Positions 5,261 to 55,745 of a stretch of 64,000 nucleotides of DNA are shown here, piece after piece (position 1 is the first letter of the stretch; the number at the start of each line of letters is the position of its first letter). The notes under the pieces are model-generated. The model was not told where the DNA came from. It made no database searches and saw only the letters and a program-made list of their open reading frames with translations. The position numbers and the translations under genes are program-made. Source of the DNA: a virus; IMG/VR virus record IMGVR_UViG_3300003316_000080, positions 3,483 through 67,482 of that record, one strand, 5' to 3'.

Positions 5261-5848
5261 ATGCGCAAGCAACTCGTTGCACACAAGGTGGCTCCGTTGC
5301 CGTTCGAGGGCAAGATAGCCGGCTACGTCGTGAACAACCTGGAGATGTGGAAGTACGAACCGCTCTTCACGTACAACGACATGATCCAAGAAGCCACGCT
5401 GGTGTGGCTGAAGTGCGGACAGGAATACCCGCACGTCGTCAGTAAACACTTTATGGCCCTGTTCAAGACGGCGTGGTATCGGCGCTGTGTCGATCTCGCC
5501 TATGAAGCATCGGAGTGCCGCGCACAGATCGCGATCACTTTCGGCGATACATACGGTTCGGATGACGAAACCATTGCGCTGGCTAAAGAACCGATGGGCG
5601 ATGAAGAGAACGCGGGCTACATGCGCACCCTGATCCGTCAGATCACGGAGCAGGCACCGGAAGAAGTCGTCAGCGTGTTCACGCTGATGCTCAATGCGCC
5701 GGTTGAACTGCTTGAACTGGCGTCGAACGCACTGGGACGTCGCAACAAGAACAACTCCAACATGATGGTTGCTCGTTGTCTGGGCCTGCCCGATGACAGC
5801 AAGCCTGTAGACGCAGCAAAAAGTTATGTACGCAGCGCACTGAAATAA
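5261..5848 (+). CDS. hypothetical protein, possible sigma-factor-like regulator
   Basis: ATG with GGAGGTG RBS (track ORF 5063 is an upstream extension); weak resemblance of NDMIQEATLVWLK to sigma region 2. Confidence 0.5.
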   Translation: MRKQLVAHKVAPLPFEGKIAGYVVNNLEMWKYEPLFTYNDMIQEATLVWLKCGQEYPHVVSKHFMALFKTAWYRRCVDLAYEASECRAQIAITFGDTYGSDDETIALAKEPMGDEENAGYMRTLIRQITEQAPEEVVSVFTLMLNAPVELLELASNALGRRNKNNSNMMVARCLGLPDDSKPVDAAKSYVRSALK

Positions 5849-5921
5849 GCAAAGCGCTACGTATACTTGTCCAGCTGCACAGAGCAGCAATTTCCAACCC
5901 CCTCCAAAACAAGGAGTTCCC

Positions 5922-6905
5922 GTGAGCAAGATCCAGAAAGAACTGCAGGACGTGACCGGCGTGAATCCGGCCGAGGACCAGTCGATCATCGACCCGGCCT
6001 ACATGAAGAAGGTCGTCAAGGCCGCTTCGAAGGACATTCCCGAGAAGGACTGGGACAAGCTGTCCGAGGAAGCCAAGGACTGGGTCAACGCGGCTGTGGA
6101 CGCGATGAACGAGCGCGAAGACATCAAGCCGTATCCCGACTACAAGGAACCGGCAAAGGAAGAGAAGAAGTCGACCCGCCGCCGCACCGATGATGACGAA
6201 GGCGACAAGCCGGCCGCTGCCGCCTACGCCGTCGGCGACGAGGTCGAAGTGACCAAGACCAACGGCAAGACCGTGGCCGGCGTCGTCAAGAACCTCGATG
6301 ATGACGGCGACCTCGTCCTCGAAGACGAAGAAGGTGAACTGGCCGTGCAGCTGAGCAAGATCGAGGCGGTCGTCGTGACCAAGGCCGCGAAGCCGGCCAA
6401 GGAGGAGAGCAAGCGTCGCCGCAACGATGACGACGAGGACGATGCGAAGGATGCGGGCCCCGGCGTCGGCGACGAGGTCAAGATCGTCAAGACCAACGAC
6501 CGCACCAACGAGGGTGTGATCACCTCGATCGACGAAGACGACATCGTCATCAAGGACGAAGACGGCGACGAGATCACGATCGCCCGCAGCAAGGTCAAGA
6601 CCGTCGAGATCATCAAGAAGGCGAAGAAGGCGTCTGCCAGCAAGTCCGACGTGAAGGACGACGCCAAGGACGACGAAGGCGACGGCAAGCGCAAGCGCGC
6701 CGGCAAGGGCGAGGATGGCGTGTCCGCCGCGCAGCGCGTCTTCGAGATCATGTGCGAAGACCCGCTGGACCCGCCCTCGCTGGAAGAACTGACCAAGCAG
6801 ATCCAGAAGGAAGGCCGCGACTGCAACGCCAACACGCTGAAGATCAACCACACGACCGCGTCGAAGATCTTCACGCTGCTGAAGGCCGGCAAGCACCTGA
6901 AGTGA
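5922..6905 (+). CDS. highly acidic protein with two tandem KOW-like repeats
   Basis: GTG start after AAGGAG; repeats GDEVEVTKTNGKTVAGVV.. and GDEVKIVKTNDRTNEGVI..; D/E-rich linkers. Confidence 0.6.
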   Translation: MSKIQKELQDVTGVNPAEDQSIIDPAYMKKVVKAASKDIPEKDWDKLSEEAKDWVNAAVDAMNEREDIKPYPDYKEPAKEEKKSTRRRTDDDEGDKPAAAAYAVGDEVEVTKTNGKTVAGVVKNLDDDGDLVLEDEEGELAVQLSKIEAVVVTKAAKPAKEESKRRRNDDDEDDAKDAGPGVGDEVKIVKTNDRTNEGVITSIDEDDIVIKDEDGDEITIARSKVKTVEIIKKAKKASASKSDVKDDAKDDEGDGKRKRAGKGEDGVSAAQRVFEIMCEDPLDPPSLEELTKQIQKEGRDCNANTLKINHTTASKIFTLLKAGKHLK

Positions 6906-8158: not shown

Positions 8159-10792
8159 ATGTCGTTTTTCTTCGCAGAGACAAAGCGCGCCAAGAAGACA
8201 GGCGCTCCGTCGAAGAAGGCCGTGATCCCCATCGCAAGCCTGCAGCGTGCCGGCTGCACTGTATGTCCGCGCAAGGCAGACTGGGACGACGGCATCAAGA
8301 CGCCACAGATGAAACCGGCCGGCCATCAGTCGCCGACGGTGTATCTGCTAGGCACGGCCCCGTCTGAGAAGGAAGACCGACTGGACGAGCCCTTTGTGTC
8401 CACAGCCTATGAAGAGGTGCTGTCGAAGTTGCCGGCGTCTCTGAGGCGGTATAGCCGCGTCGGCTATCTGACGCAGTGCAAGGCCGCCAGTAAAAACTTG
8501 ATGCTGGAGATGTCGCCGGACCACGCGGAGATCGAGTGCTGCCGTCCTCGCGTGATCGCAGACATCGAAGAGACGAAGCCGATTGTCGTGATCGGCATCG
8601 GCGACAAAGCGCTTAATTGGGCCCTCCCCTTCTCATCGGGCGTCACCTCGATCACGCATCGAGGCACCTTGTTTCCGGTGAAGTTCGGGACGCACACGTG
8701 CTGGTTTTACAGCGTCATGTTCCCGGCATATGTGCACCGAGAAAAGCGCAAGTATCCGACTGAGTACGAGATCGCGCTGACGCACGACCTACGCAATCTC
8801 GCTAAGTTGATCAACAACGAAGAGATTGGTGTTCCGAAGATCTACGCAGACAAGTGGGAAGAGGGTATCGAGATCGTGACAGGTCACGATGCCGGAGACT
8901 TCCAGCGTGTGGAGCGCGCACTTGCAGACATGGCAGCGCTGCCCGATGTCGCACTCGACATCGAAACCAATGGCCTGCGGCCCTGGCACTTGAACAAGCC
9001 CAGGTTGTGGACTGCCGCAGTAGGCACATTCGAGCGTGTGATCGCCTTCCCGATTGATCATCCTGACGGCTGGGGCGCTGACGCGCGCATCCGCAAGATG
9101 CACGGTCTGTTCGCTGAGTGGCTGTGGCAATCGCGCCGGAAGTGGGCACATAACCTTGCAATGGAACTGGAGTGGTTTAACTGGTTCTACAGTCCGCACG
9201 CGATCATGGGCAATGAGTGGGGCGACACGATGGCCCTTGCCCATGTACTCGACGAGCGCAAGGGCACGAAGTCATTGGAGGTGCAGACGATCATTGGCGC
9301 CGGCTTCAACCTGAAGTCCATGAGTCCAGTTGATCCGTCGTTGCCTGACTGGATCAGTAAGTACCCGATTAAGACGGTGCTGAAGTACAACGGTGGAGAC
9401 TCGAAATGGACGGACTTCCGTCGCCGCCAGCTGCAGCCGATCGTGGAGGCCGACGAAAAGCTCCATGACGTCTATCAGCACAAGATTCGAATGGCGCCGG
9501 CTTTGATCCTCACAGAGGCCAAGGGCCTACCGGTGTCTGTGCCGCGTGCTGAGAAGATGAATCGCGCACTGACGGAGCAACTGCACAAGATTGAAGACAA
9601 GCTGCGGGCTGATGTGGCTGTGCGCCGCCATACAACGCAGTTCGGCCAGTTCAGCCCGACGAACTCCGATCATGTGCTCGCGCTGATGGAAAAGACCCTC
9701 AAGCGCGATGAGATCTACATCATTGAGAAAGACGGGTCTGAGTCGAAGTCAGTCGCTGAAGAAGTGCTGGCGCTGATGCCTGAAGATGAGGTGCCATCAG
9801 CGAAGTTGATCCTGGAGCACCGGGGCATCTCCAAGCTGAAGTCGACGTATCTGGAGCCAGTGATCAAGGGCACGATGATCAGCGTCGATGGCTATGTGCA
9901 CTCGAAGTACAGCAGTCTGTTCGCCGCGACCCACCGCCTGAACTCTGAAGATCCCAACGCGCAGAACTGGCCTAAGCGCAAGCACAAGGAAGTTCGCTCG
10001 ATCTTCTACGCGGAAGATGATGAAGAGATTCTGGCGTGCGACTACGGCCAGATCGAGTTCCGCGTCGTGGGCATGTGCTCGGAGGACGACAACCTGTGCC
10101 GGGCCGTGTGGACCGGGTACGACGTGCACTTGCACTGGGCAGAGCGGATCGTCGCCCTGTATCCCAAGATCAAGGACTGGATCAGATCAGAGTTCGAGGT
10201 GGACTGGGATGAGAAGGGCATCAAGACGCTGCGCCAGGAGGCCAAGAACAAGTGGGTGTTTCCGCAGTTCTTCGGTGCCTCGATCAAGTCGTGTGCAGCC
10301 TCTCTGCACTTGCCTGAAGAGGTCGCGCAGGATCTGGCTGATGAACTATGGGATGAGTTCCGAGGCGTCAAGCGCTGGCAAGACAAGTTGATGGAGTCGT
10401 TTGCGCGCAAGCTCTACGTGGAGACGCTGGACGGTGCGCGCCGTCGTGGGCCCATGACCAAAAACGAGATCATCAACATGCCGATCCAGGGCACAGCGGC
10501 CCGCATCGTGCAGACCGCGCATGCAGCTTTGGCTGAACGCGGCTTCATCATGGATCGCGGCGTGTATATCCCATCGCTGAACGTACATGATGACCTCTCA
10601 ACCTGGAGCAAGAAGGCAGAGCGGGAGGCCAACGTGAAGATCATCGTCGAAGAGATGTGCAAGCACCGATTTGACTGGATCAACGTGCCGCTGCTGGTGG
10701 AAGTGTCGGCCGGGCCTGACTGGTCCGACCTGACCGAGATCGGCAAGTACAGCAGCCATGAGCTGTTCAACATCAGGAACCCTTACCAATGA
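8159..10792 (+). CDS. DNA polymerase, family A, with N-terminal uracil-DNA glycosylase (family 4-like) domain
   Basis: N-term GTAPSEKEDRLDEPFV (UDG family 4 motif); exo DIETNG; pol motifs DYGQIEFRV, QGTAARIV, NVHDDL. Confidence 0.85.
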   Translation: MSFFFAETKRAKKTGAPSKKAVIPIASLQRAGCTVCPRKADWDDGIKTPQMKPAGHQSPTVYLLGTAPSEKEDRLDEPFVSTAYEEVLSKLPASLRRYSRVGYLTQCKAASKNLMLEMSPDHAEIECCRPRVIADIEETKPIVVIGIGDKALNWALPFSSGVTSITHRGTLFPVKFGTHTCWFYSVMFPAYVHREKRKYPTEYEIALTHDLRNLAKLINNEEIGVPKIYADKWEEGIEIVTGHDAGDFQRVERALADMAALPDVALDIETNGLRPWHLNKPRLWTAAVGTFERVIAFPIDHPDGWGADARIRKMHGLFAEWLWQSRRKWAHNLAMELEWFNWFYSPHAIMGNEWGDTMALAHVLDERKGTKSLEVQTIIGAGFNLKSMSPVDPSLPDWISKYPIKTVLKYNGGDSKWTDFRRRQLQPIVEADEKLHDVYQHKIRMAPALILTEAKGLPVSVPRAEKMNRALTEQLHKIEDKLRADVAVRRHTTQFGQFSPTNSDHVLALMEKTLKRDEIYIIEKDGSESKSVAEEVLALMPEDEVPSAKLILEHRGISKLKSTYLEPVIKGTMISVDGYVHSKYSSLFAATHRLNSEDPNAQNWPKRKHKEVRSIFYAEDDEEILACDYGQIEFRVVGMCSEDDNLCRAVWTGYDVHLHWAERIVALYPKIKDWIRSEFEVDWDEKGIKTLRQEAKNKWVFPQFFGASIKSCAASLHLPEEVAQDLADELWDEFRGVKRWQDKLMESFARKLYVETLDGARRRGPMTKNEIINMPIQGTAARIVQTAHAALAERGFIMDRGVYIPSLNVHDDLSTWSKKAEREANVKIIVEEMCKHRFDWINVPLLVEVSAGPDWSDLTEIGKYSSHELFNIRNPYQ

Positions 10793-27501: not shown

Positions 27502-27921
27502 ATGGACGAAAAACGCAAACGTGGTCGGCCGGCTGGAGCAATGAACAAGCTCAGTCAGGAGGCTGTCAACCTCGCAAAGCAGACAGGTAAGTTGCCCCAT
27601 GAGATCTTGCTAGAGATCGCACGGGGCAATCCCATTTGTGTGCTGAGTATGGAAGAAGGCGTTCTGAAGCCTGTCTATGTCATGACAGATCCTGCACAGG
27701 TGCTTGATGCAGCAAAGGCAGCAGCACCGTACTTCGCGCCGAAGATTTCTACAGTTGAAGTGATTGCAGGGGTATCTGACCATGAACTTGATCGCATCAT
27801 TGCGCTCGCTGCCGCCGAAGCAGGCATTAGCCTTGGCGCTAGCGGAGAAGGCGAAGAGACAGAGGAAGAGGAACCAACTGAGCGAAGCAGCCGAAAGGGC
27901 CGTAGACAGCTACGCGAGTGA
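27502..27921 (+). CDS. terminase small subunit
   Basis: N-terminal KRKRGRPAG DNA-binding-type motif, PYFAPK motif, acidic tail; directly upstream of large terminase. Confidence 0.6.
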   Translation: MDEKRKRGRPAGAMNKLSQEAVNLAKQTGKLPHEILLEIARGNPICVLSMEEGVLKPVYVMTDPAQVLDAAKAAAPYFAPKISTVEVIAGVSDHELDRIIALAAAEAGISLGASGEGEETEEEEPTERSSRKGRRQLRE

Positions 27922-29629
27922 AGCAGAGGGGCCTCCTGTCCCTCTGCAGGTTTCCTCAGTCGTACTAGACGACACGCACGTAATCAGCCAACTGCTTACA
28001 ACAGGCAAGTTGTGTGCGGGTCCGTCTGCACAGCACATCCGCTACAAGATCTACTGGGGCGGTCGTGGTGCTGTGAAGTCGTGGGGCATGGCAGAAGCAC
28101 TAGTACGTCTGGCAGCTGCCAAGCCTCTACGCATACTGTGCTGCCGTGAGTTTCAGAACTCGATCAAGGACAGTGCACACAAACTGCTGAAAGACACGAT
28201 CGAGAGACTTGGTCTGTCTACGTGGTTCACTGTCACTGCCGACAGCATCAAGTCTCGTGTCGGTGCAGAGTTCATGTTCAAAGGCCTGCACAACAACGAG
28301 AACGGCATCAGGTCGACTGAAGGCGTAGATATCTGCTGGGTGGAAGAAGCACACAGCGTTACTGCACTTAGCTGGCAGAGCCTACTGCCCACGATCCGTG
28401 GTGACGAGTCAGAGATCTGGATCTCGTTCAACATGGTCGAAGAGAGTGATGCTACGTACCAGATGTTCGTAGCAAATGAACGCCCTCACTCGATCGTTCA
28501 CCACATCAATTACGACAGCAATCCGTTCCTACCGAAAGTGCTCCGTGATGAAATGGAGCACGACAAGAAGACGGACTACGCGCTGTACGAGCACATCTGG
28601 CTGGGCAAGCCTCGCAAGCGTAGTAACGCAATCGTCCTCAACGGCAAGTACCGCATTGAGGAATTCCCAGATGATCTGTACGAACACGCAGATAGGTTGT
28701 TCTTCGGTGCTGACTGGGGCTATGCAGAAGATCCGTCCACGCTGGTGCGTTGCTTCATCCTGAACAACAAGCTGTACATCGAGTACGAGGCATACGGCAA
28801 GCACATCGAACTGAACGACTACGCTGCGTTCTATGACCAAGTGCCCGGGTCACGTGACTGGCCTATCTATGCCGACAGCGCGTTGCCAGCAACGATCTCG
28901 CATGTGCGCGGTCTGGGCTTTGCGATCGATGCGGCAGAGAAGTGGCCGGGCAGTGTCGAAGACGGCATCAAGCATCTGCGGGGGTACGACGAGATCATCA
29001 TTCACCCGCGCTGCAAGATGGCGGCCGACGAGGCTTACAAGTGGCGGTACAAGGTCGACAAGAAGGTGCTGGATGCCAACATGCAGCCACTCGTACTGCC
29101 CACGCTGGTAGACGCACACAATCACTGCATTCCGGCTGGCGTGCTTGTGTCTACTGCGTGTGGCGATGTGCCTATTGAGCAAGTACAAGTAGGCGACCTC
29201 GTGTGGACGCGTGTTGGTCTGCGTCCTGTGTTGTGGGCAGGTGCCACAGACACGAACCGTGAAGTGCTGGAGATCACGTTGTCATCTGGTCATGTAGTGC
29301 GCTGCACTCCTGACCACGAAGTCTTCGTGAATGGTGAGTTCATTCGTGCAGACGCTGCTCAGGTGTCTGACAACATGAACACACTCGACAGCACGGCACA
29401 TGGCAGGCGAATTGGCACTGCGTCTGTAGTCTCTATCACTCGCATCGCGGAAAAGGCTGATGTTGTCTATGACGTAACGGTCGATGGACAACACGAGTTC
29501 TTCGCGAATGGTGTGCTGGTTCACAACTGCTGGGACGCGGTCCGGTACGCCCTACATGGCTACATCCCCAGATCGGGTGAGATGGGCGTGTGGAACAGAC
29601 TAGGCGCCCAAGCTCTGGGACAATCCTGA
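27782..29629 (+). CDS. terminase large subunit, intein-containing
   Basis: Walker A-like YWGGRGAVKS, C-terminal nuclease domain; start uncertain (first in-frame ATG overlaps TerS by ~140 nt). Confidence 0.8.
   Translation: MNLIASLRSLPPKQALALALAEKAKRQRKRNQLSEAAERAVDSYASEAEGPPVPLQVSSVVLDDTHVISQLLTTGKLCAGPSAQHIRYKIYWGGRGAVKSWGMAEALVRLAAAKPLRILCCREFQNSIKDSAHKLLKDTIERLGLSTWFTVTADSIKSRVGAEFMFKGLHNNENGIRSTEGVDICWVEEAHSVTALSWQSLLPTIRGDESEIWISFNMVEESDATYQMFVANERPHSIVHHINYDSNPFLPKVLRDEMEHDKKTDYALYEHIWLGKPRKRSNAIVLNGKYRIEEFPDDLYEHADRLFFGADWGYAEDPSTLVRCFILNNKLYIEYEAYGKHIELNDYAAFYDQVPGSRDWPIYADSALPATISHVRGLGFAIDAAEKWPGSVEDGIKHLRGYDEIIIHPRCKMAADEAYKWRYKVDKKVLDANMQPLVLPTLVDAHNHCIPAGVLVSTACGDVPIEQVQVGDLVWTRVGLRPVLWAGATDTNREVLEITLSSGHVVRCTPDHEVFVNGEFIRADAAQVSDNMNTLDSTAHGRRIGTASVVSITRIAEKADVVYDVTVDGQHEFFANGVLVHNCWDAVRYALHGYIPRSGEMGVWNRLGAQALGQS
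29126..29527 (+). mobile_element. mini-intein within terminase large subunit (134 aa)
   Basis: Begins CIPAGVLV (block A), TPDH (block B), ends GVLVHN followed by +1 Cys; no endonuclease domain. Confidence 0.7.
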
Positions 29630-29654
29630 ATGTTTTCAACGAAGGGGAACTGAA

Positions 29655-31892
29655 ATGCCACGTGTCTTGACACCATCGCCTCTCACCGCCGAACTGCGTG
29701 CGGCAGGGTTTCCATGGGCAGATGATTCCGGTGTACTGCGCGCTGCCGATGGCACTGTCATCAGTAGCGGTGGGGGTGCGTCGACCTTCACTGCGCTGAC
29801 GGATAGTGCGAGTGCAGACATTCCTGCCACCAATGCACCGACAGCAGCAGCACTCGCTCTGAAGGCTAGTCTGGTGAATGGCGGTGTACCGACATCGCAA
29901 CTGCCGCGATCCACTGCAGCCGTGACGCTCTCTGCAACGACGAGTGCAACTCCCACAGACGGCACCTTTGCTGCGCTGCCGGCGCAGGCGTGTACGGAAC
30001 TGGAGGTATTCAACGACAGCCAAGTGCCCGTCGAGTACCGCCGTAATGGCGCCGGCAACGTCGTCACACTCCTGGCGAATCAGCGTCGCCGCATCCTCGG
30101 CATCACCGACGCCAGCCAGATCGCATTCCGGCGCTCTGACTACGCAGTGGCCGGCCGGACGCAGCCGACGACGATCTCTGTCCGTGCTCGCACGAACACG
30201 GACACGTACACGCTTGCCGGCACGCTGTCGATGGTGCTCAGTGGTGGTTCGTACACGGCGTTTAGCAGCCTCGCGTGTACGTCCATGGAGATCTTCAACA
30301 ACTGCAACCACGACATCCTCTTCACGATCGACAGCGGCACGGCGTACAAGCTGCGTCACGGTGAGTCGGCTGTGATTCTGGGCATCGCCAACGCCAACCA
30401 AGTGCGTGTCAAGACCTATGATTCGATCGCTCGTCAATCTCGCAATCTCGAGGCCGAGTGCTGGACGGTAGGTCTGGGTCGGGAGACGCTGAGTCCGTAC
30501 CGTGCAGACGCCATCACGGCTGAAGCCGACATTCTCAACGGCGAGCCCAACTATCCGAACCTTCAGCCAATCGGCGCGGTCCTGACGCTGGGCAACCTGC
30601 GTCCTGTGCCGCGTCTGCGCAAGAAGCCGGTGGAGTTGGCGAAGTGGGATCTGGCGGCCAATGTGGTCACCAACCGTGCGGCTGACTTCGCTGACATCAC
30701 ACCGGCCGCTGTGGGCAAGGACGAGATTACCTTCGGCACCACGATCGTCGAGTACACGCAGTCTCAGACGGCGGAAGTACTGATCGCTCCTGCTGGTGTG
30801 CAGTCCACACCGGTCGACGTCTCCAATGGCTCGATCCACTTCACGCATGTGTGGCCGGACAACGCCGGCAACAACTACGGCGTGAACGGGCCTTCCAGCT
30901 TCATCATCGAACTGCACAGCGCGGGCTCGCCGTCAGCGCCCACGGCCAACTACCACACCAGTGGCGTACTGAACTCGCTGAATGCGGGCTTCATGGGCGC
31001 GTCCACGCTGGGCTATAACCTGCAGCGCTGCTTCTCTCTGCCGATCAACGCATTCACTGCGGCTGGCACGGGTGCTACGCTGACGGCGATCACCTGGGCC
31101 CGCATTCGCATCACGGGCCCGTCGGCGTCCAACGGCTGCAAGTTGCGCCCTGTCCGCCTCGACTTCGTGCCCAACGCGTTGACGAAGGGGACGGTGATCT
31201 TCACCTTCGACGACCTGCACGCGGGCGCCTGGACCAACGCGCTGCCGATCATGTCGAAGTACTCGTACCCGGGCGTCCTGTGCATGGACACCACGGTCAA
31301 GATGGGCCAGTCAGGCTTCCTGACACCCGAGCAGATCATTCAGATGCACCAGACGTACGGCTGGGAGGTCGGCTATCAGGTCTATCAGAACGAAACGGGG
31401 TTCAACCTCAACTCCGAATCCTGGATGCGCCAGGTCGGCAAGTGGGTGCTGGAGATGAACCGTCTGGGCATCCACGAGACGTACAACGGCTCGTACGGCT
31501 CGGGCACTGTGACGAACGTCGACGAAGAACGGCTGATGGCTGCTCGCCGTGCACTGTCGACGATGCGTCGCTTCACCAGTGGCACGAACACGTCCCCGCC
31601 CTTCAAGAACCCGGAGACGGTGCCCTACGGCGACCCGTACAACCTGCGGTGCCTCAACATGAGCAGTGGCTTCACGGCCGGCACGATCTACGATCGCTGG
31701 AAGGATCACGTCGATCAGGCCGTTGCTGCAAAGGGCGTGGCGATCTTCGCGTGTCACAGTGAATTCAACGGCGCCGGTGAAGCGCTGACGGCACTCGGTA
31801 CGCTCTGCGCGTACATCCGCACGCTGGAACTGGCCGGCAACTGCCAAGTGACCACCTTCGCCGGTCTGAACAAGCAGGCTTACGGGGTCTGA
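29655..31892 (+). CDS. large protein with C-terminal polysaccharide deacetylase (CE4/NodB-like) domain
   Basis: AAGGGGA RBS; C-terminal VIFTFDDLHAGAWTNALPIMSKYSYPGVLCMDTTV matches the NodB motif-1 region; N-terminal ~450 aa Ser/Thr/Ala-rich. Confidence 0.55.
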   Translation: MPRVLTPSPLTAELRAAGFPWADDSGVLRAADGTVISSGGGASTFTALTDSASADIPATNAPTAAALALKASLVNGGVPTSQLPRSTAAVTLSATTSATPTDGTFAALPAQACTELEVFNDSQVPVEYRRNGAGNVVTLLANQRRRILGITDASQIAFRRSDYAVAGRTQPTTISVRARTNTDTYTLAGTLSMVLSGGSYTAFSSLACTSMEIFNNCNHDILFTIDSGTAYKLRHGESAVILGIANANQVRVKTYDSIARQSRNLEAECWTVGLGRETLSPYRADAITAEADILNGEPNYPNLQPIGAVLTLGNLRPVPRLRKKPVELAKWDLAANVVTNRAADFADITPAAVGKDEITFGTTIVEYTQSQTAEVLIAPAGVQSTPVDVSNGSIHFTHVWPDNAGNNYGVNGPSSFIIELHSAGSPSAPTANYHTSGVLNSLNAGFMGASTLGYNLQRCFSLPINAFTAAGTGATLTAITWARIRITGPSASNGCKLRPVRLDFVPNALTKGTVIFTFDDLHAGAWTNALPIMSKYSYPGVLCMDTTVKMGQSGFLTPEQIIQMHQTYGWEVGYQVYQNETGFNLNSESWMRQVGKWVLEMNRLGIHETYNGSYGSGTVTNVDEERLMAARRALSTMRRFTSGTNTSPPFKNPETVPYGDPYNLRCLNMSSGFTAGTIYDRWKDHVDQAVAAKGVAIFACHSEFNGAGEALTALGTLCAYIRTLELAGNCQVTTFAGLNKQAYGV

Positions 31893-31897
31893 TCGCC

Positions 31898-32239
31898 ATG
31901 GCAACAACACCCACTCCAGCAGCACGCACTCTTGTGGTGGGCCCGAGTGCTTTCCGCGTCATCGACTTCGGCAAGCAGGCTCAACTCGATCTGTGCTTTG
32001 ACTGGTCGCAGACGACGTGGCTGACTGCGATCACGTCGTACACGCTGTCAGTTCCTTCTGGGCTCACCATCGAAGCAGAGAGCTTTGCCGACAAGAAGGT
32101 GACGGTCACACTGAAGTTCACTGATCCCACTGCGCTGTACGAAGGGCAGCTGTTCGATGTGGAGTGCGAGGTGATCACGAACGACACCCCTCCCCTGTCT
32201 GACACACGCAGCATCACCGTGCGTGCAGTCAGTCGCTAG
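31898..32239 (+). CDS. hypothetical protein
   Basis: Immediately follows the 745-aa gene. Confidence 0.45.
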   Translation: MATTPTPAARTLVVGPSAFRVIDFGKQAQLDLCFDWSQTTWLTAITSYTLSVPSGLTIEAESFADKKVTVTLKFTDPTALYEGQLFDVECEVITNDTPPLSDTRSITVRAVSR

Positions 32240-32461: not shown

Positions 32462-32572
32462 ATGAAATGGATGTACCGCTTCGGCCTCGCGGCCGTGCTC
32501 GCCTTCGTCTCTTCCCTCGGGCATGTCCAGGCCACGGACGCACACCCACAAGCACAGACAGCGCGGCAGTAA
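32462..32572 (+). CDS. small secreted peptide (36 aa) with signal peptide
   Basis: AGGAGA RBS; MKWMYRFGLAAVLAFVSSLGHVQA then TDAHPQAQTARQ; too short for the ORF track. Confidence 0.35.
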   Translation: MKWMYRFGLAAVLAFVSSLGHVQATDAHPQAQTARQ

Positions 32573-32584
32573 ACAGTTTCTGCC
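32565..32584 (+). promoter_or_regulatory. palindromic CAGTAAA..TTTCTG motif
   Basis: GGCAGTAAACAGTTTCTGCC followed by TATATAGGG. Confidence 0.4.
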
Positions 32585-32633
32585 GTATATAGGGCGCGGG
32601 AGCGATCTTGCGCCCTTTCCTTTTGGAGAACTC

Positions 32634-33239
32634 ATGAGCTACTCATTCACCAAGCGTGCTGCGACACGCTCAGCCTTGCTGGCGCTGGTCTGCCGTGAAC
32701 TCGATGTGATCGCGAAGCAGCAACCCCTGCATGAACACGATTTCGACCAGATCCTGAGCAACTTCGCCAATGCCGCGTCACTGGTGGCGCCGGACAAGGA
32801 TCGTCCCTACTCCGGCCACATGCTGCAAGCCGCGCTGAACGGATATGTGTCGTGGCGCAGCCGCAAGCATGAAGGTATCGAAGAGCCCGAGATCGTCGGC
32901 GTCAACATCTCGTGCAGCGTGTCGTGGTGCCAGATGACGCAAGCCGAACTGGCGGACGAGGCTGCGACGCGTGTGAGCGACCCCAGCGTGTACGGCTCCG
33001 GCGAGGGTGCGAATCCCCAAGTGGGCAATCCGCCTTACGGACAGGAAGAAGGCAGCGCTTACACGCCGCCGATCAACACGCAGATGTCGGCCATGGAAGC
33101 TGCCATCACCCGTTCTGGCCCGGCGCACCAGCCCCGTGATGAAGGCCCCTGCGGCATCACGAACTGCGATGCTTCGTGTGACAACCACAAGGGCTGCAGT
33201 GGCCTGACTGACACCGGCACCGGCCTGGGCACGGACTGA
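32634..33239 (+). CDS. hypothetical protein
   Basis: TGGAGA RBS then ATG (MSYSFTKRAA). Confidence 0.5.
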   Translation: MSYSFTKRAATRSALLALVCRELDVIAKQQPLHEHDFDQILSNFANAASLVAPDKDRPYSGHMLQAALNGYVSWRSRKHEGIEEPEIVGVNISCSVSWCQMTQAELADEAATRVSDPSVYGSGEGANPQVGNPPYGQEEGSAYTPPINTQMSAMEAAITRSGPAHQPRDEGPCGITNCDASCDNHKGCSGLTDTGTGLGTD

Positions 33240-33625: not shown

Positions 33626-33642
33626 TCGACACTTGACCACCG

Positions 33643-33672
33643 AGGGCCCGTATACCTGCGGGCCCTTTTCAT
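33643..33672 (+). terminator. rho-independent terminator
   Basis: GGGCCCG...CGGGCCC stem followed by TTTTCATTT; same hairpin family as 6942-6977. Confidence 0.6.
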
Positions 33673-34177: not shown

Positions 34178-34372
34178 ATGACTGAACTGACACGTGTCCG
34201 CAACGAAGAACGATGCAAGGCTGTGCCGGGCGCGTACATCACTGATGACGGACACGTGCTTGTGGACAGCACCAACGCAACGTCACCACTTGAAGTGCTG
34301 TGCGCGATCGCAGTGCTGGTGACTGCAAGGACAATGCGTCGGATGAAACACCCGCCCGTGCCGACACGATGA
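34178..34372 (+). CDS. hypothetical small protein
   Basis: GGAGG RBS; ATGA overlap with downstream HNH gene. Confidence 0.35.
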   Translation: MTELTRVRNEERCKAVPGAYITDDGHVLVDSTNATSPLEVLCAIAVLVTARTMRRMKHPPVPTR

Positions 34373-34824
34373 AGCTCACCAAGAAACAACGTGAAGCCCT
34401 TAAACAGAAGTTCGGGGGCTTTTGTGCATATTGCGGCTGCAAACTTGGTGAGCGCTGGCAGGCGGATCACATACAGGCCGTTCAGCGCAGTGTGCAGGGA
34501 CATTGGGTGCGCCAAGACCCTAGCAAGCGCTGGTCGCCGATGGTGTTCAAGCGCACCGGCGTCACTGTGGGTCGGCCGGAACTGGACATCCTTGACAATC
34601 TTGCACCAGCGTGCGGACCTTGCAACGGCGATAAGTCCGATATGGACCTAGAGACGTGGCGCCATCGCCTCTCTCAAACATTGACCGTGCTGGGCAACAA
34701 CTACGGTCGGTACAAAGACGCCCTGCGCTTCGGGTTGATCGTCGAAACCCCCAAGCCCATAGAATTCCACTTCGAGCGGTGGCAACGGACCCCGCGCCGC
34801 CAACTGAAAGAGGACACCCTATGA
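34369..34824 (+). CDS. HNH endonuclease (packaging-associated position)
   Basis: CAYCGCKLGERWQADHIQAV...NLAPACGPCNGDK; immediately upstream of portal. Confidence 0.75.
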   Translation: MKLTKKQREALKQKFGGFCAYCGCKLGERWQADHIQAVQRSVQGHWVRQDPSKRWSPMVFKRTGVTVGRPELDILDNLAPACGPCNGDKSDMDLETWRHRLSQTLTVLGNNYGRYKDALRFGLIVETPKPIEFHFERWQRTPRRQLKEDTL

Positions 34825-36383
34825 GCAACAAGGTATCCGTGCGCGCTGCCAAGCAAGCTGCCGTCCGGGAGGACACGCGGGCCCGTAAACAACTTACTGG
34901 TGATGCTCAGCCACAGCTAGGTGCAGTCACCACGATCGACAGCTTCCAGAACCTCGCTCATCGTCTGGGCGTCGGTGCGGATAACGTGCTGTCCTACGGC
35001 TCATATGCCTTCAACCCCCTCACACGCAACCGCGTGCTGCTGGAGTGGATCCACCGGGGCTCGTGGATCGGCGGGCAGGCGATCGACATCATCCCGGAGG
35101 ACATGACGAAGAACGGGATTGAGATCGAAGGCGAGATGGACCCGGCTGATGTGCAGCACATCGAGCGCATCGCCACTGCAACTGATGTGTGGGGGCAGAT
35201 CAACGAAACGCTGCAGTGGGGACGCCTGTACGGTGGCGCTATCTGTGTGGCGCTGATCGACGGACAGGATCTGCGCACGCCCCTCAATCTCGATACCGTC
35301 GGCACTGGGCAGTTCAAGGGCCTGCTGACGCTGGACCGGTGGATGGTGGAACCTACACTGGAAGACCTCGTGACGGAGATGGGCCCTCATCTGGGTCTGC
35401 CGAAGTACTACCGCGTCAACGACAGTGCCCCGGCCCTGCGTGGCCGTGTCGTGCACTACACGCGTGTGATGGTGCGGCATACGGGCATCAAGTTGCCGTA
35501 CCAGCAGCGCCTGCAAGAGAACCTGTGGGGCATCTCGGAACTGGAGCGCCTGTATGACCGCATGCTGGCCTTCGACACAGCCACCATGGGCGCAGCACAA
35601 CTCGTGTCCAAGGCGTTCTTGCGCACGCTGTCGGTGGAGAACCTGCGCGATGTGGTCGCTGCTGGTGGCAAGCCTCAAGCAGGTCTGTACAGCTACGTCG
35701 AGATGATGAGGCGCTTCCAGGGCGTAGAAGGCATCACGCTGATCGACGCCAAAGACAAGTTCGAGGCACAGGCAGGCGCCCTCACCGGCATGACGGGCAT
35801 CAAGGAAGTGCTGCTGAGCCTTGCTGAGCAACTCGGCGGCGCGCTGCAGATGCCACTGACGCGATTGCTGGGCCAGTCGCCTGGTGGCCTGAACAGTGAC
35901 GGCGACGGCGAGATGCAGACGTACTACAGCGGCATCAAGCGGCGCCAGGAAAGAGATCTGCGCTTCGGCGTCAACACGATTTATCACCTGATCGCACGCT
36001 CGATCGGCATCAAGATTTCTGACGACGTCAACATCAGTTTCTGCGATCTGTTCGAGCAGTCTGACGACAAGAAGTCGGATATCGCCACGAAGACGGCGAC
36101 GGCAGTCACGGAAGCCTATGACGCCGGCTTGATCAATCAGCAGGTCGCTATGAAGGAACTGCGTCAGTCCTCGCGCCGTACTGGTCTCTTCTCCAATATC
36201 ACCGCCGAGATGATCGAGAACGCAGACGAAGAGATCCAGGCGCCCGGCATCGAGGAACTGCAAGCGGCCATGAAGGCTGGAGGTACGGAAGATGGCAACA
36301 ACACCCCGCCGAATGGGCAGCAGCAAGAGAAGCCGGTGGGAGCCGAAAAGACACCTCGCAAACAGCTACTACAAGCAACTTGA
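34821..36383 (+). CDS. portal protein
   Basis: AAGAGGA RBS; ~520 aa acidic protein between packaging and head-morphogenesis genes. Confidence 0.65.
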   Translation: MSNKVSVRAAKQAAVREDTRARKQLTGDAQPQLGAVTTIDSFQNLAHRLGVGADNVLSYGSYAFNPLTRNRVLLEWIHRGSWIGGQAIDIIPEDMTKNGIEIEGEMDPADVQHIERIATATDVWGQINETLQWGRLYGGAICVALIDGQDLRTPLNLDTVGTGQFKGLLTLDRWMVEPTLEDLVTEMGPHLGLPKYYRVNDSAPALRGRVVHYTRVMVRHTGIKLPYQQRLQENLWGISELERLYDRMLAFDTATMGAAQLVSKAFLRTLSVENLRDVVAAGGKPQAGLYSYVEMMRRFQGVEGITLIDAKDKFEAQAGALTGMTGIKEVLLSLAEQLGGALQMPLTRLLGQSPGGLNSDGDGEMQTYYSGIKRRQERDLRFGVNTIYHLIARSIGIKISDDVNISFCDLFEQSDDKKSDIATKTATAVTEAYDAGLINQQVAMKELRQSSRRTGLFSNITAEMIENADEEIQAPGIEELQAAMKAGGTEDGNNTPPNGQQQEKPVGAEKTPRKQLLQAT

Positions 36384-52940: not shown

Positions 52941-53651
52941 ATGGCTACCACTGAGTATGTACCTTTCGCTAATGATCCGGCCGCGAATACACAGACGCCG
53001 GCTACATACACCGCAGACAGTCAGCGCACGATCGGCAACCAGCCCGGTATTGCTCGCAGTGAGTTCGTCAATACATCCTTGCGACAAGCATGCACAGGTG
53101 TGGCTGGCGTGGCTCAGTTTGCCGTCACAGAAGGCACGTTGGATCTGCCAGATGACGGTGATCCTGCCACTTTTGCGGCGGCGCTGAAGAATGCTATTCA
53201 GGCCCTCATCACCGGTGCGCAGTTCTGGAAGCCCGGTGATGTGAAAGCCACGATGGATTCAGGTGCGCAAACTGGTTGGCTCGAACTGAACGGCCAATTC
53301 ATCTTGCAAACGTCCTATCCAGCGCTGTATGCCATTGGTGTTGCGAATGGTTGGGCCACTACCGGCACTGGCCCGACAGCTGCTGTGCAGCTTCCTGATG
53401 GCCGCGCTGAATTCCTGCGTGGTGCTGATCTAGGTCGTAATGTGGATCCTGGGAGAACGTTGGGCAGTGCTCAAGGCTTTGCTATCCAGTCGCATACCCA
53501 CCAGATCATCGGTCTGCGTGATGCTGGGTCGGGTGGCCTTGACATCAACGGAGGCACTGGCCCTGTTGACGCTACTGGCAACACACAGGCCACTGGTGGC
53601 AGCGAAACGCGCCCCCGCAACATCACCGTCCGTTATCTGATCAAGACTTAA
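52941..53651 (+). CDS. tail fibre protein with collar domain
   Basis: AEFLRGADLGRNVDPGRTLGSAQGFAIQSHTHQ...ETRPRNI matches tail-collar motif; N-terminus similar to the next gene. Confidence 0.6.
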   Translation: MATTEYVPFANDPAANTQTPATYTADSQRTIGNQPGIARSEFVNTSLRQACTGVAGVAQFAVTEGTLDLPDDGDPATFAAALKNAIQALITGAQFWKPGDVKATMDSGAQTGWLELNGQFILQTSYPALYAIGVANGWATTGTGPTAAVQLPDGRAEFLRGADLGRNVDPGRTLGSAQGFAIQSHTHQIIGLRDAGSGGLDINGGTGPVDATGNTQATGGSETRPRNITVRYLIKT

Positions 53652-53660
53652 GGAGCCGTT

Positions 53661-55745
53661 ATGGCGACCAATGAATTTCTGCCCTTTGCCACAGACGCTG
53701 GCGCCGAGGTTGATACTCAGGCTGTGTGGGCTTCTCCTAGTGGTTACCGCCCGGTAGGTTATGGACCTGGGATTCTGACGAAAGAAAAGCTGAACAAGGC
53801 TCTTCGTCAGAGCACCTCTATCGCCTCTGCCGTCGCTCAATTGATGGCAGAGAACCTGCCCAGTGAAGACATCCTGGATAACGGTGACATCAACACGTTG
53901 GTGGACCAACTCTCGCGGGCTGTGATCACCGGTACATTCCTGAGTGGCACTGCCAGCACGCAGGGCTCGAACGCCGTTGGCACGCGTCAGAACTTGGCAG
54001 GGGCTGTCGATCGCACACAACATGAAAAGAACGCCGACTTCATCAGCGTGAAGGATTTCGGTGCTGTTGGTGACGGTGTGCACGATGACACGACGGCTTG
54101 CGTGGCCGCAGCCACGGCCGCTCTTGCAGTTGGAGCGGGTCTGTATTTTCCAGACGGCCGCTATTACATCAACGGACTTTTCAGTGTCCCGAACAAAGTA
54201 TCTTTGTATGGGTCTGGTAAGACTACCAGCGAGATCCAGTTCGGTTCCTCTGGAAGCCTTCGTGTGGTCGGCACATCACCCAGCTACGTGGGGCGTTTGT
54301 CTATCAGTCGACTAGGCTTGACCAATCAGGGCGCGGGTTCCCCCTTCGGCATTCAGTTCACGTATGCGACTCGCATCACGATGTACGACTGTGTCGTCTA
54401 TAACACCAGCATTCAACTGTCTGCGTTCTCGTACATCACCTTTGAAAACTGTGACCTGTTTGGTGGCAGCATTCAAGGCGACCACCCCACAGTCAACGAG
54501 ATCAGTGAAGCACTGAAGATCATCGGCTGCAACGGCAGCAACTTTGCGATTAACGTGAAGGACACTGCCGACGTTCTCGTGTCACGTACACATCTGCTTG
54601 GGCCCACCTCACAGATCATGATCCAGCGTGGCGAGCAAAACAGCGCGTTTTACCCACCTGTACAGATTGCCAATTGCATTGTGGATTCTGGTGATGATGA
54701 AGGCATTTATCTGATTGGCGTTGCGCCAAGAATTTCGGATACCTTCGTCAGCAGTGGTCGCACCAACCTGAAGTCAGGTGTGCGCTTGAATGATTGCATT
54801 GAAGGCAGCTTGATCGGTGTTACGGCGCGCTTTTGCGGCAATCATGGTCTGCATGTTGGCTTCAGCAAGCAGATCAAGGTTTTGGGGGGCCATTTTGACG
54901 ACAACAAGGTGTCGGGTGTGCGTATCGGTGATTCGTCAGATCTGACTTTCATCGGCAATACGATGATGAACCAGCCATCGTGGTTCGGTGGTAGCTACCC
55001 ACAGGTAAACGGCATCACGGATGAGCCCTCGAACTGCACGAACATCACATGCATCGGAAATCAGACGGTGGGCAACACGAGTGCTCAGGTGTACCTGCCG
55101 TCTGCTACCAACATCATCCACAGCAACGTCGGATACAACGAAGGTCGCCTGACCTGTGATAGCTGGCGCAACAACACGGACAATGCGGCGTCTCTTGGGA
55201 CTGCCGGCGCTAGATACACCGTGGTGCATGCGGTCAGTGGCACCATCAACACGTCAGATGCCAATGAAAAGCAGGATATCGAAGATATTCCTGTGGAGTG
55301 GTTAGAGGCATGGTCCTCCGTAAGGCGTGTGCGCTTCAAATGGAAGGACGCTGTGCAGAAGAAAGGCACCGGTGCCCGTTGGCACATCGGTCTGATTGCA
55401 CAAGAGATCTGGGAGGCTTTCGCCGCTCGCGGTATCGACGCGTTCGAGATTGGTCTTCTGTGTTATGACGCGTTCGAAGAAGTACCAGAGCGCACGGTGG
55501 AAGTGCCTGAAATCCCGGCACTCGTCATCGAGCACCCAGAAGTTCCTGAAGTGCTGGATGAAGACGGCCGTGTCATACAAGAATACAAGCCAGGATGGCA
55601 CGAAGTGGTCGAAGAAGCGCAGCCAAGCCGTGTAGTAGTCGTCCAGGAGTACAAGCCTGCTGGTGGTCGCTATGGTGTGCGTTACGAAGAGGCTGAGGCA
55701 CTAGAGGCCGCTTGGGTTCGCTGGAAATTGGAATCTCTTCAGTAA
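53661..55745 (+). CDS. tailspike: pectate-lyase-like beta-helix with C-terminal S74-type intramolecular chaperone
   Basis: KDFGAVGDGVHDDTTA (pectate-lyase-superfamily start), repetitive beta-helix region, C-terminal SDANEKQDIEDI...WHIGLIAQEI. Confidence 0.65.
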   Translation: MATNEFLPFATDAGAEVDTQAVWASPSGYRPVGYGPGILTKEKLNKALRQSTSIASAVAQLMAENLPSEDILDNGDINTLVDQLSRAVITGTFLSGTASTQGSNAVGTRQNLAGAVDRTQHEKNADFISVKDFGAVGDGVHDDTTACVAAATAALAVGAGLYFPDGRYYINGLFSVPNKVSLYGSGKTTSEIQFGSSGSLRVVGTSPSYVGRLSISRLGLTNQGAGSPFGIQFTYATRITMYDCVVYNTSIQLSAFSYITFENCDLFGGSIQGDHPTVNEISEALKIIGCNGSNFAINVKDTADVLVSRTHLLGPTSQIMIQRGEQNSAFYPPVQIANCIVDSGDDEGIYLIGVAPRISDTFVSSGRTNLKSGVRLNDCIEGSLIGVTARFCGNHGLHVGFSKQIKVLGGHFDDNKVSGVRIGDSSDLTFIGNTMMNQPSWFGGSYPQVNGITDEPSNCTNITCIGNQTVGNTSAQVYLPSATNIIHSNVGYNEGRLTCDSWRNNTDNAASLGTAGARYTVVHAVSGTINTSDANEKQDIEDIPVEWLEAWSSVRRVRFKWKDAVQKKGTGARWHIGLIAQEIWEAFAARGIDAFEIGLLCYDAFEEVPERTVEVPEIPALVIEHPEVPEVLDEDGRVIQEYKPGWHEVVEEAQPSRVVVVQEYKPAGGRYGVRYEEAEALEAAWVRWKLESLQ

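Follow-up and report, generated by a model that had tools for sequence, protein, structure and literature searches.

The closest described structure to the protein reported here is the turret head protein gp31 of the archaeal virus HFTV1. It is trimeric, 413 aa long and short-stalked, combines a CBM-like with a NodB domain, binds Zn and is seated on a gp30 hexamer atop the capsid hexamers (PMC12494034). Its Zn sites superimpose on those of 3RXZ, and the HFTV1 turret base and head proteins are encoded by adjacent genes. The HFTV1 authors described the turret head protein as lacking homology to bacteriophage proteins (PMC12494034). A second described system is the Gp77 fibre-tail adaptor family, whose members form a ring on the head-to-tail adaptor. 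In the myophage Bas63 a Gp77-homologous ring on the connector carries the whiskers, and the whisker protein gp5 is a few gene numbers away from the capsid gene gp8. A functional analogy is offered by Pectobacterium phage Possum and Acinetobacter phage Aristophanes, in which a virion-borne domain reportedly modifies acetylated host polysaccharide at adsorption. The tail fibres or tailspikes of these phages reportedly carry an unrelated SGNH Ser-His-Asp esterase fold, and the activity of their deacetylating domains is said to have been shown experimentally. In contrast, the protein described below did not have the SGNH fold and its sugar-modifying role is predicted.

The window, a stretch of 64,000 nucleotides of viral DNA, contained the following features at this locus.

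29655..31892, + strand: whole fibre gene, 745 aa, ATG start; predicted modular virion fibre or appendage protein
29655..29906, + strand: aa 1-84, N-terminal anchor of variable sequence with a segment rich in Gly, Ala and Thr, predicted to be disordered in the monomer model
29907..30158, + strand: aa 85-168, β-module 1 (phrog_19032-type), PHROG 19032 E 1.7e-26, β-strands in the model; tblastn matches of about 60 aa in N4-like Erwinia phages
30159..30479, + strand: aa 169-275, β-module 2, tandem duplicate of module 1; second PHROG 19032 stretch
30480..30629, + strand: aa 276-325, low-confidence linker
30630..31172, + strand: aa 326-506, β-sandwich resembling a CBM, a match to the galactose-binding-like domain in HFTV1 gp31
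31173..31889, + strand: aa 507-745, NodB/CE4-like (β/α) barrel of "Gln-type", from CE4 homology and predicted fold
31209..31214, + strand: D519-D520, the two Asp of CE4 motif 1, which serve canonical CE4 enzymes as catalytic base and metal ligand
31377..31394, + strand: Q575...N579-E580, replacing CE4 motif 2 H-[ST]-x-x-H, from HMM alignment to CE4 structures
31755..31757, + strand: H701, His of CE4 motif 5, the catalytic acid of canonical CE4 enzymes, aligned to the His of 7AX7 "IILLHD"
31898..32239, + strand: gene for a 113-aa Ig-like protein of the Gp77 "fibre-tail adaptor" type, separated by 5 nt from the stop of the fibre gene; candidate collar or anchor for the fibre
32591..32616, + strand: hairpin resembling a terminator, with an 11 bp stem that includes 7 GC pairs, 3' of the fibre and adaptor genes, a consensus match only

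The 745-aa ORF was recovered exactly as given in the preliminary description of this DNA, and a Shine-Dalgarno-like AAGGGGA was present 7 nt 5' of its start. Since the protein had 19 homologs (33-92% identity) and the profile of its C-terminal domain matched 2,267 cluster representatives (50%-identity clusters, E<=1e-3), the ORF is a real gene and not a chance ORF in high-GC DNA. A 493-aa antisense ORF (29436..30917) was dismissed as a gene, the conserved frame being that of the + strand. A look-up of the exact 745-aa sequence returned no record, and megablast found no near-identical DNA in cultured phages. Matches by tblastn were limited to one N-terminal module (60 aa), which N4-like Erwinia phages carry in hypothetical proteins, and to weak matches to Gordonia minor tail proteins (E 3e-4 to 4e-2).

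The N-terminal part had been described as rich in Thr, Ser, Ala and Gly and as β-like. The compositional bias was real and weak, with these residues making up 41% of aa 1-450 vs 35% of aa 451-745, and the region was β-rich by prediction, comprising the two tandem β-modules (aa 85-168 and 169-275) and the β-sandwich (aa 326-506). The two modules were 29% identical (BLASTP, E 2e-10). The region upstream of them (aa 1-84) varied among homologs from different phage types. In the monomer model pLDDT was <50 at aa 1-8 and 37-84, and again at aa 282-315 in the linker.

The best structural match of the predicted model was HFTV1 gp31 (PDB 8QPG), at a structural identity of 15%, the higher Z of this match arising partly from the two domains being aligned together. 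The β-sandwich and the NodB barrel that follows it were arranged relative to each other in the model as they are in gp31, so that both proteins share a two-domain cassette of CBM-like and NodB/CE4-like parts. Many phages of bacteria, the present one among them, have this cassette. The likeness was structural: searches of the PDB with two family profiles (A2 and A3) did not detect gp31 (8qpg), even at E<=10. The two proteins differ in length (745 vs 413 aa, with about 325 extra N-terminal residues in the window protein) and in the metal site, both motif-2 His ligands being replaced (Q575, N579) in the window protein whereas gp31 binds Zn. They also differ in setting: the window protein comes from a myophage of bacteria and has a Gp77-type adaptor as its partner, whereas gp31 belongs to an archaeal virus and has a gp30 base.

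A distorted (β/α) NodB barrel was found for the C-terminal domain both in the predicted structure and by fold search. The single sequence scored 20.0 and 21.2 bits against PF01522, below the cutoff of 23.1, covering profile positions 5-67 of 124, and this family was matched by 23 of 54 relatives. With a family profile of the domain, the match to PplD (6DQ3) reached E 2.3e-14. The resemblance to CE4 motif 1 that had been pointed out from the strings VIFTFDDLHAGAWTNALP (located at aa 514) and YPGVLCMDTTV (at aa 538) is therefore real and statistically supported at the family-profile level. F518-D519-D520 was invariant in the close-family alignment (A1) and aligned to the FDD of PgaB, PplD and 7AX7; among the non-redundant Gln-type domains D519 was kept in 100 of 102 and D520 in 101 of 102. 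The H701 position was His in 167/169 family domains and in all 93 Gln-type domains. The barrel, the F-D-D of motif 1 and the motif-5 His are thus shared with the homologous CE4/NodB deacetylases (6DQ3, PgaB/BpsB and 7AX7, and the "NodB1.2" structures 3RXZ, 3QBU, 1Z7A and 5Z34).

Motif 2 differed. HMM alignment placed "GWqiasQayste" opposite "GCELASHSYTHQ" of 7AX7, with Q575 and N579 at both positions of the metal-ligand His, and the same was seen in 20 of 20 close family members. Across the family the first position was Q in 116 domains and H in 52, and since canonical "GWDIGNHTxxH" members occur in the same HMM family, the substitution of His by Gln is real and not a misalignment. No RPPY (motif 3) was present. 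"NGSYGSG" (611-617) aligned to "IAYPSG" of PplD, with the assignment of motifs 3 and 4 uncertain, and an "ETVPYGDP" block was found at 654-661. The canonical motif-3 Arg was not evident, the family having the blocks "GSYGSG" and "ETxPYGDP" instead; in NodB2 members the Arg reaches the active site from elsewhere. Unlike PplD, PgaB/BpsB and Xyl-CE4, the window protein therefore has Q-x-x-x-N-E for H-[ST]-x-x-H and no recognisable "RPPYG", and its NodB domain shares one polypeptide with a CBM-like domain and a fibre and scores under the Pfam cutoff as a single sequence. No SGNH or other esterase fold was matched in Pfam, PHROGs, NCBIfam or fold searches. The earlier suggestion of a polysaccharide deacetylase accordingly stands as to the NodB fold, the DD pair and the motif-5 His, and CE4 homology was supported through the family profile. 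It does not stand as to the two His of motif 2, and of the two metal-binding residue types that had been named, the Asp is present and the motif-2 His are absent.

The Gln-type site is common to more than 100 non-redundant relatives (<70% identity), and E580 and S613 are conserved and co-vary with Q575 in Gln-type domains (in statistics that ignore phylogeny). The resulting signature is DD ... G-W-[QE]-x-x-x-Q-x-x-x-[TN]-E ... G-S-Y ... E-T-x-P-x-G-D-P ... H. Because of this spread and co-variation the pocket looks remodelled rather than decayed. Judged from its sequence, the window protein is probably incapable of binding Zn in the manner of gp31, and since the two zinc-binding histidines of ordinary deacetylases are missing, its handling of host surface sugars is probably unconventional. 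Departures from the Asp-His-His triad on the same fold are also seen in PuuE allantoinase (3CL6/1Z7A), BA3943, Ba0150 and EcCDA (2VYO), and 1Z7A, BA3943 (7bkf/6hm9) and Ba0150 (4m1b) were among the fold matches of the window protein. In PuuE, however, both motif-1 Asp are absent and Trp replaces the second His, whereas the window protein keeps DD. EcCDA has also lost the catalytic Asp, whereas the window family keeps DD and the motif-5 His, and its first His is specifically Gln. The word "Gln" occurs nowhere in the text of the NodB review, and literature searches on BA3943, pseudoenzymes and CE4, and on CE4 tail fibres, found nothing. Papers that name a phage "polysaccharide deacetylase" were uninformative.

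These observations bear on three readings of the domain. Homology, fold, the invariant motif-1 DD and motif-5 His, and the closest structure, gp31, with its Zn sites superimposable on 3RXZ, would all agree with a canonical metal-dependent CE4 deacetylase on a tail fibre, with an Asp-His-His Zn site and an Asp-base/His-acid pair, which strips acetyl groups from host cell-wall or capsular polysaccharide. We regard this as improbable, given that Q575 and N579 replace both His ligands in the profile alignments and in all 20 close family members, that the Pfam score is under the cutoff and that the gene sits outside the tail-fibre module. The domain could instead be a catalytically dead, lectin-like pseudoenzyme, with the fibre just binding host glycan through the old substrate groove. 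Enzyme folds are often reused for binding in phage receptor-binding proteins, and the loss of the metal site and the lack of an evident motif-3 Arg would fit such a reuse. Loss of the motif-2 His pair has elsewhere been read as a sign of inactivity (2VYO; PMC10967932), and presumed-inactive CE4 members are known, BA3943 and Ba0150 among the fold matches and 2VYO by judgement. However, about 100 non-redundant Gln-type domains keep the base Asp (100/102) and the acid His (93/93), the conservation and co-variation of Q575, E580 and S613 is the pattern of a remodelled working site, and 2VYO has lost the catalytic Asp that the window family retains; we consider a dead lectin possible and somewhat doubtful. 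Equally tentative is the suggestion that Gln-type NodB domains form an undescribed catalytic class derived from CE4, in which the His2Asp zinc site would be swapped for a Gln/Glu hard-metal or a metal-independent mechanism, possibly using Ser613 and His701. In that case the Gln type would be the commonest enzymatic head on a mobile CBM-NodB cassette, with which tailed viruses of bacteria and archaea edit host surface glycans from their capsids, necks or tails.

In the window the fibre gene lies between the terminase and portal genes. Its 113-aa neighbour matched PF23148 (32 bits, above the cutoff of 27, E 1.9e-7), and PF23148 was also the precomputed assignment of an identical protein (P0168). 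This neighbour found only itself in a database of 5.8 billion proteins and only insignificant Ig/cadherin-like matches in the PDB. At another locus (L016) a Gp77 domain (35.2 bits) was fused to P22_Tail-4, a P22 gp4-type adaptor and neck component, directly upstream of the fibre homolog, and a Gp77 domain was also present in locus L022. The same type of phage was not met again in loci L001-L014, where tblastn gave no match to the window's Gp77-like protein, TerL, portal or sheath. Since the fibre homologs are encoded within the structural modules of genomes of podo-, sipho- and myovirus type, an appendage of the virion is the likeliest role of the 745-aa protein. The position between terminase and portal and the adjacent Gp77-type gene point, by inference, to a fibre at the neck or collar. 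The pair resembles GP4 gp77 and the collar-whisker arrangement of Bas63 and Sf14 at the level of genes, a small Ig-like Gp77-family protein being encoded beside a fibre gene. GP4 Fiber-1 and Bas63 gp5 are not known to carry NodB domains, whereas the window fibre has one, and neither GP4 Fiber-1 nor the Bas63 whisker was among the top fold matches of the protein, searched without a separate N-terminal query. Because the closest relatives (68-92% identical) had no Gp77 gene nearby and occupied other genomic positions, the neck assignment rests on one Pfam match and on adjacency.

Two other placements were weighed. The protein might decorate the capsid as an HFTV1-like turret on the capsomers, with the 113-aa neighbour as its base. 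The best structural match is indeed a turret head, the HFTV1 base and head genes are likewise adjacent, and the gene has a head-module position in the window and in several other loci, where it follows the portal gene or lies next to scaffold or major head genes. We nevertheless consider a capsid turret unlikely, as the neighbour belongs by its match to a family that forms rings on the head-to-tail adaptor, the Gp77 domain of L016 is fused to a neck component, close relatives of the gene follow tail adaptor genes or stand at the ends of tail modules, and the roughly 325 additional N-terminal residues are missing from the turret head protein. Far less probable is a soluble or secreted phage enzyme outside the virion, serving lysis, superinfection exclusion or biofilm penetration. 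The gene immediately precedes lysis genes in two loci, and one report on a Ralstonia phage lists a "polysaccharide deacetylase" with the lysis module. The last slot before the lysis cassette is, however, also the usual position of side fibres, and every other context was within an operon for head, neck or tail morphogenesis. The protein is built of modules like a fibre, its N-terminus varies, and neither family scans nor the structural model gave any pointer to secretion.

We favour, with moderate confidence, a modular virion-surface fibre bearing a turret-head cassette, mounted at the neck through a Gp77-type ring and contacting host glycan through a remodelled Gln-type pocket. From its N-terminus on, the fibre would comprise a short anchor of variable sequence, the pair of duplicated β-modules and, at its far end, the cassette of CBM-like β-sandwich and NodB/CE4-like barrel, as in HFTV1 gp31. 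Unrelated phages exchange this cassette, and the virion site that carries it differs among them. The present phage has a contractile tail, and its fibre, presumably a trimer, would most likely sit at the neck, borne by a ring of the neighbouring Gp77-type Ig-like protein in the manner of the GP4 fibre-tail adaptor and the Bas63 collar whiskers. There, ahead of baseplate engagement, it would meet polysaccharide of the host surface, whether LPS, capsule or EPS, the host being probably a member of the Burkholderiales. Because DD and the motif-5 His are kept, the Zn His are replaced and E580 and S613 co-vary, the NodB domain, a member of a large Gln-type subclade, probably engages acetylated or amino-sugar glycans through the remodelled pocket, and it may act as a non-canonical esterase or deacetylase (metal-independent or with a hard metal) or by binding only.

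As the HFTV1 turret-head cassette is present in many bacterial phages, the CBM-like and NodB domains form an adhesion module common to archaeal and bacterial viruses. Most of its phage members have a conserved pocket of Gln/Glu/Ser type instead of the His-His zinc site, so that either a variant of CE4 chemistry has gone unrecognised or lectins have evolved from a deacetylase repeatedly in phages. The cassette passes between virions of podo-, sipho- and myovirus type, and Gp77 collar domains are found at its side more than once. It offers a concrete case of an accessory receptor-binding device re-plugged onto different virion sites, which may be of use in host-range engineering.

The window belongs to a contractile-tailed phage. 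Its replication module encodes a 5′-3′ exonuclease, a DnaB-like helicase, a SNF2 helicase, PolA and a gp32-like protein. The family-A DNA polymerase (8159-10792, 877 aa) carries an N-terminal uracil-DNA-glycosylase-superfamily domain (aa 57-202). The head genes (intein-bearing large terminase, portal, head maturation protease, major head protein) are accompanied by tail genes for sheath, tube, tape measure and baseplate and by the phage's own tail fibre/spike genes at 52941-55745. The putative fibre gene was located outside the tail module, with the large terminase gene before it and the portal gene after it:

27764-29629, large terminase (Terminase_3)
29655-31892, + strand, fibre gene, 745 aa
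31898-32239, Gp77-like protein, 113 aa (PF23148), starting 5 nt after the fibre gene stop
32523-33239, ORF of 238 aa as listed, followed by a 127-aa ORF for a DUF6378 protein
32591-32616, strong terminator-like hairpin, 11-bp stem, 3′ of the fibre and Gp77-like gene pair
33642-33667, strong terminator-like hairpin, 11-bp stem
34300-34824, HNH endonuclease gene
34656-36383, portal ORF with the listed GTG start

The fibre ORF, with its ATG start, was found as the preliminary description had it, and the peptides quoted there were located at aa 514 and aa 538. A Shine-Dalgarno-like AAGGGGA lies 7 nt 5′ of the start. Since the window DNA is ~59% GC, long ORFs arise by chance on either strand; an overlapping 493-aa antisense ORF was rejected as a true gene, the + frame being the one with homologs. 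The + frame is a real gene. Its protein has 19 homologs (33-92% identity), and when 1.84 billion proteins were searched with a profile of the last 250 residues, 2,267 cluster representatives matched at E<=1e-3.

The 113-aa neighbour matched PF23148, “podophage GP4 fiber-tail adaptor gp77”, with 32 bits against a threshold of 27. It is a very divergent member of this family: a 5.8-billion-protein database yielded no relative beyond its identical copy, on a 67,482-bp contig. In GP4, 15 copies of the ~93-aa Ig-like gp77 encircle the head-to-tail adaptor and anchor fibres (PMC11445570), and the connector of the myophage Bas63 has a homologous collar ring that bears whiskers (PMC12609058). The first hairpin falls within the listed 238-aa ORF, whose true start is therefore probably farther downstream, close to the “MSYSF” methionine. 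The true portal start is likewise probably later than listed, because the HNH gene just upstream overlaps the GTG. The terminase contains a 134-aa mini-intein (aa 455-588, about 29126-29527) spanning “CIPAGV” to “VLVHN|C”, for which Pfam Intein_splicing and Hint_2 scored above cutoffs and PT-HINT just under (27.4 vs 27.7 bits). Given the HNH gene and this intein, the terminase-portal interval, with ~5 kb of inserted genes, looks like a mobile-element hotspot.

A full-length AlphaFold2 model of the 745-aa protein (mean pLDDT 74) and a second model of aa 316-745 from 54 sequences (pLDDT 87, pTM 0.90) divided it as follows:

aa 1-84, N-terminus, low confidence, differing among homologs
aa 85-168, β-module 1
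aa 169-275, β-module 2
between β-module 2 and the β-sandwich, linker
aa 326-506, CBM-like β-sandwich
aa 507-745, α/β barrel of NodB/CE4 type

The N-terminal part was previously described as rich in Thr, Ser, Ala and Gly; the enrichment is real but modest (41% vs 35%). The β-modules are a tandem duplication (29% identical, E 2e-10), and both match PHROG 19032, a family without known function. N4-like Erwinia phages also have the ~60-aa core of β-module 1 (29907-30158), in hypothetical proteins of ~214 aa; in Erwinia phage Ea9-2 such a gene (5560-6204) directly follows DNA polymerase I, among replication genes and outside any structural module.

In printed profile alignments, D519-D520 aligned on the CE4 motif-1 Asp pair and H701 on the motif-5 His. 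Q575 and N579 sit on both motif-2 histidines (“GWqiasQayste” against “GCELASHSYTHQ” in 7AX7). Misalignment was ruled out as the cause, since the same HMM family holds canonical “GWDIGNH[TS]xxH” members. Of the fetched domains, 116 had Gln and 52 had His at position 575; thinning to <70% identity left 102 domains of the Gln type and 46 of the His type. In the Gln type, D519 (100/102), D520 (101/102) and H701 (93/93) were kept. E580 was present in 73/101 Gln-type vs 7/44 His-type domains, S613 in 90/102 Gln-type domains (mostly Ala in His-type), and G612 and Q571 also changed with Gln575, although the Fisher p-values for these partners ignore shared ancestry and indicate a trend only. Motif 3, “RPPYG”, was not recognisable. 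Where it is expected, Ser613 (31491-31493) lies within a “GSY” block and might have a new role in catalysis or ligand binding.

On our reading of these alignments, the Gln-type pocket appears remodelled and under constraint. A canonical Zn-dependent CE4 deacetylase, with the classic mechanism, is disfavoured by the motif-2 substitutions and seems unlikely. The domain could plausibly be a pseudoenzyme or lectin, but a catalytic Asp and His that do not vary fit this uneasily; non-canonical catalysis and binding alone appear about equally probable. The best stand-alone matches of the domain (3RXZ, 3QBU, 1Z7A, 5Z34 and 5ZNT) belong to the poorly conserved “NodB1.2” subclass in a review of NodB variation (PMC10967932), in which PuuE allantoinase is a NodB enzyme without metal and 2VYO is judged inactive. 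Unlike 2VYO, which is without the catalytic Asp and both motif-2 histidines, Gln-type domains keep the catalytic Asp. “Gln” occurs nowhere in the text of that review.

The β-sandwich and barrel together form a two-domain cassette of the type seen in gp31, the turret head protein of the archaeal virus HFTV1 (PDB 8QPG), which its authors reported to be without homology to bacteriophage proteins (PMC12494034). This unit is present in the bacterial myophage of the window. Foldseek searches of predicted viral structures also detected it, over ~440 columns each, in Bacillus phage G Gp673, an Arthrobacter phage Qui “esterase”, an uncultured myovirus “putative polysaccharide deacetylase” and others. 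Similarity to gp31 is, on the models, structural only, as no sequence profile reached 8QPG, and the Z advantage of gp31 is due partly to alignment over two domains.

Homologs were found in structural modules of unrelated phage types. In podophage contigs, homologs 68-79% identical directly follow two SU10-type adaptor genes, and a few genes downstream the tail module of two contigs encodes a weak GNAT acetyltransferase-like protein (L004, 17016-17579; L006, 18224-18835), of interest beside a deacetylase-like fibre. Elsewhere a homolog directly follows the portal, and in a Duganella prophage it has the major head protein gene on one side and the genes for head closure, neck and tail terminator on the other. 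A 92% identical homolog closes a tail module of siphovirus type, ahead of the endolysin, and in another prophage a lysis gene immediately follows the homolog. Homolog P0016, in a P22-like contig, is immediately preceded by a gene whose product joins a P22 gp4-type adaptor to a Gp77 domain (42.9 and 35.2 bits, each above cutoff). In another P22-like contig, P0043 (461 aa, turret-head-sized) lies two genes after the coat and three before a Gp77-domain protein. No Gp77 gene was found near the closest relatives of the fibre gene, and none of the retrieved loci resembled the phage of the window. Roseateles and Duganella genomes and a Thiobacillus MAG carry copies, which suggests Burkholderiales-type hosts. 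A 475-aa turret-head-sized Gln-type relative (P0033) on a 743-kb contig (GCA_031583705.1) neighbours collagen-repeat, radical SAM, PhoH, Hfq-like and DnaB genes; the contig could come either from a very large phage or from a cell.

Positions in the head module would suit an HFTV1-like capsid turret, but the Gp77 and adaptor associations and the long N-terminal extension argue against it. As for a non-virion enzyme of lysis or exclusion, only two of the contexts fit. The analysis shows that the gene is real and establishes its domain layout, CE4 homology, motif states, conservation and synteny; presence in the virion, position at the neck, trimerisation, the glycan ligand and catalysis are inferred. 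We consider it quite probable that the 745-aa protein is a virion-borne CBM-NodB appendage.

A virion protein with CBM and deacetylase-like domains is already known from HFTV1, as are deacetylating fibres of another fold, so this is not a new kind of system. What is new is that bacterial phages of several morphotypes are recognised to carry the cassette, that it is repeatedly associated with Gp77 collar domains, and that the NodB active site has a Gln-type variant, a large group of which no description was found. We suggest a modular appendage whose distal cassette, with its Gln-type barrel, would engage a polysaccharide of the host surface, and whose variable N-terminus would let that cassette be mounted at different sites. 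For the phage of the window the most likely docking site would be a Gp77-type collar, and we give a neck location about an even chance. Mounted there, the protein would act as an accessory adsorption device apart from the baseplate fibres.
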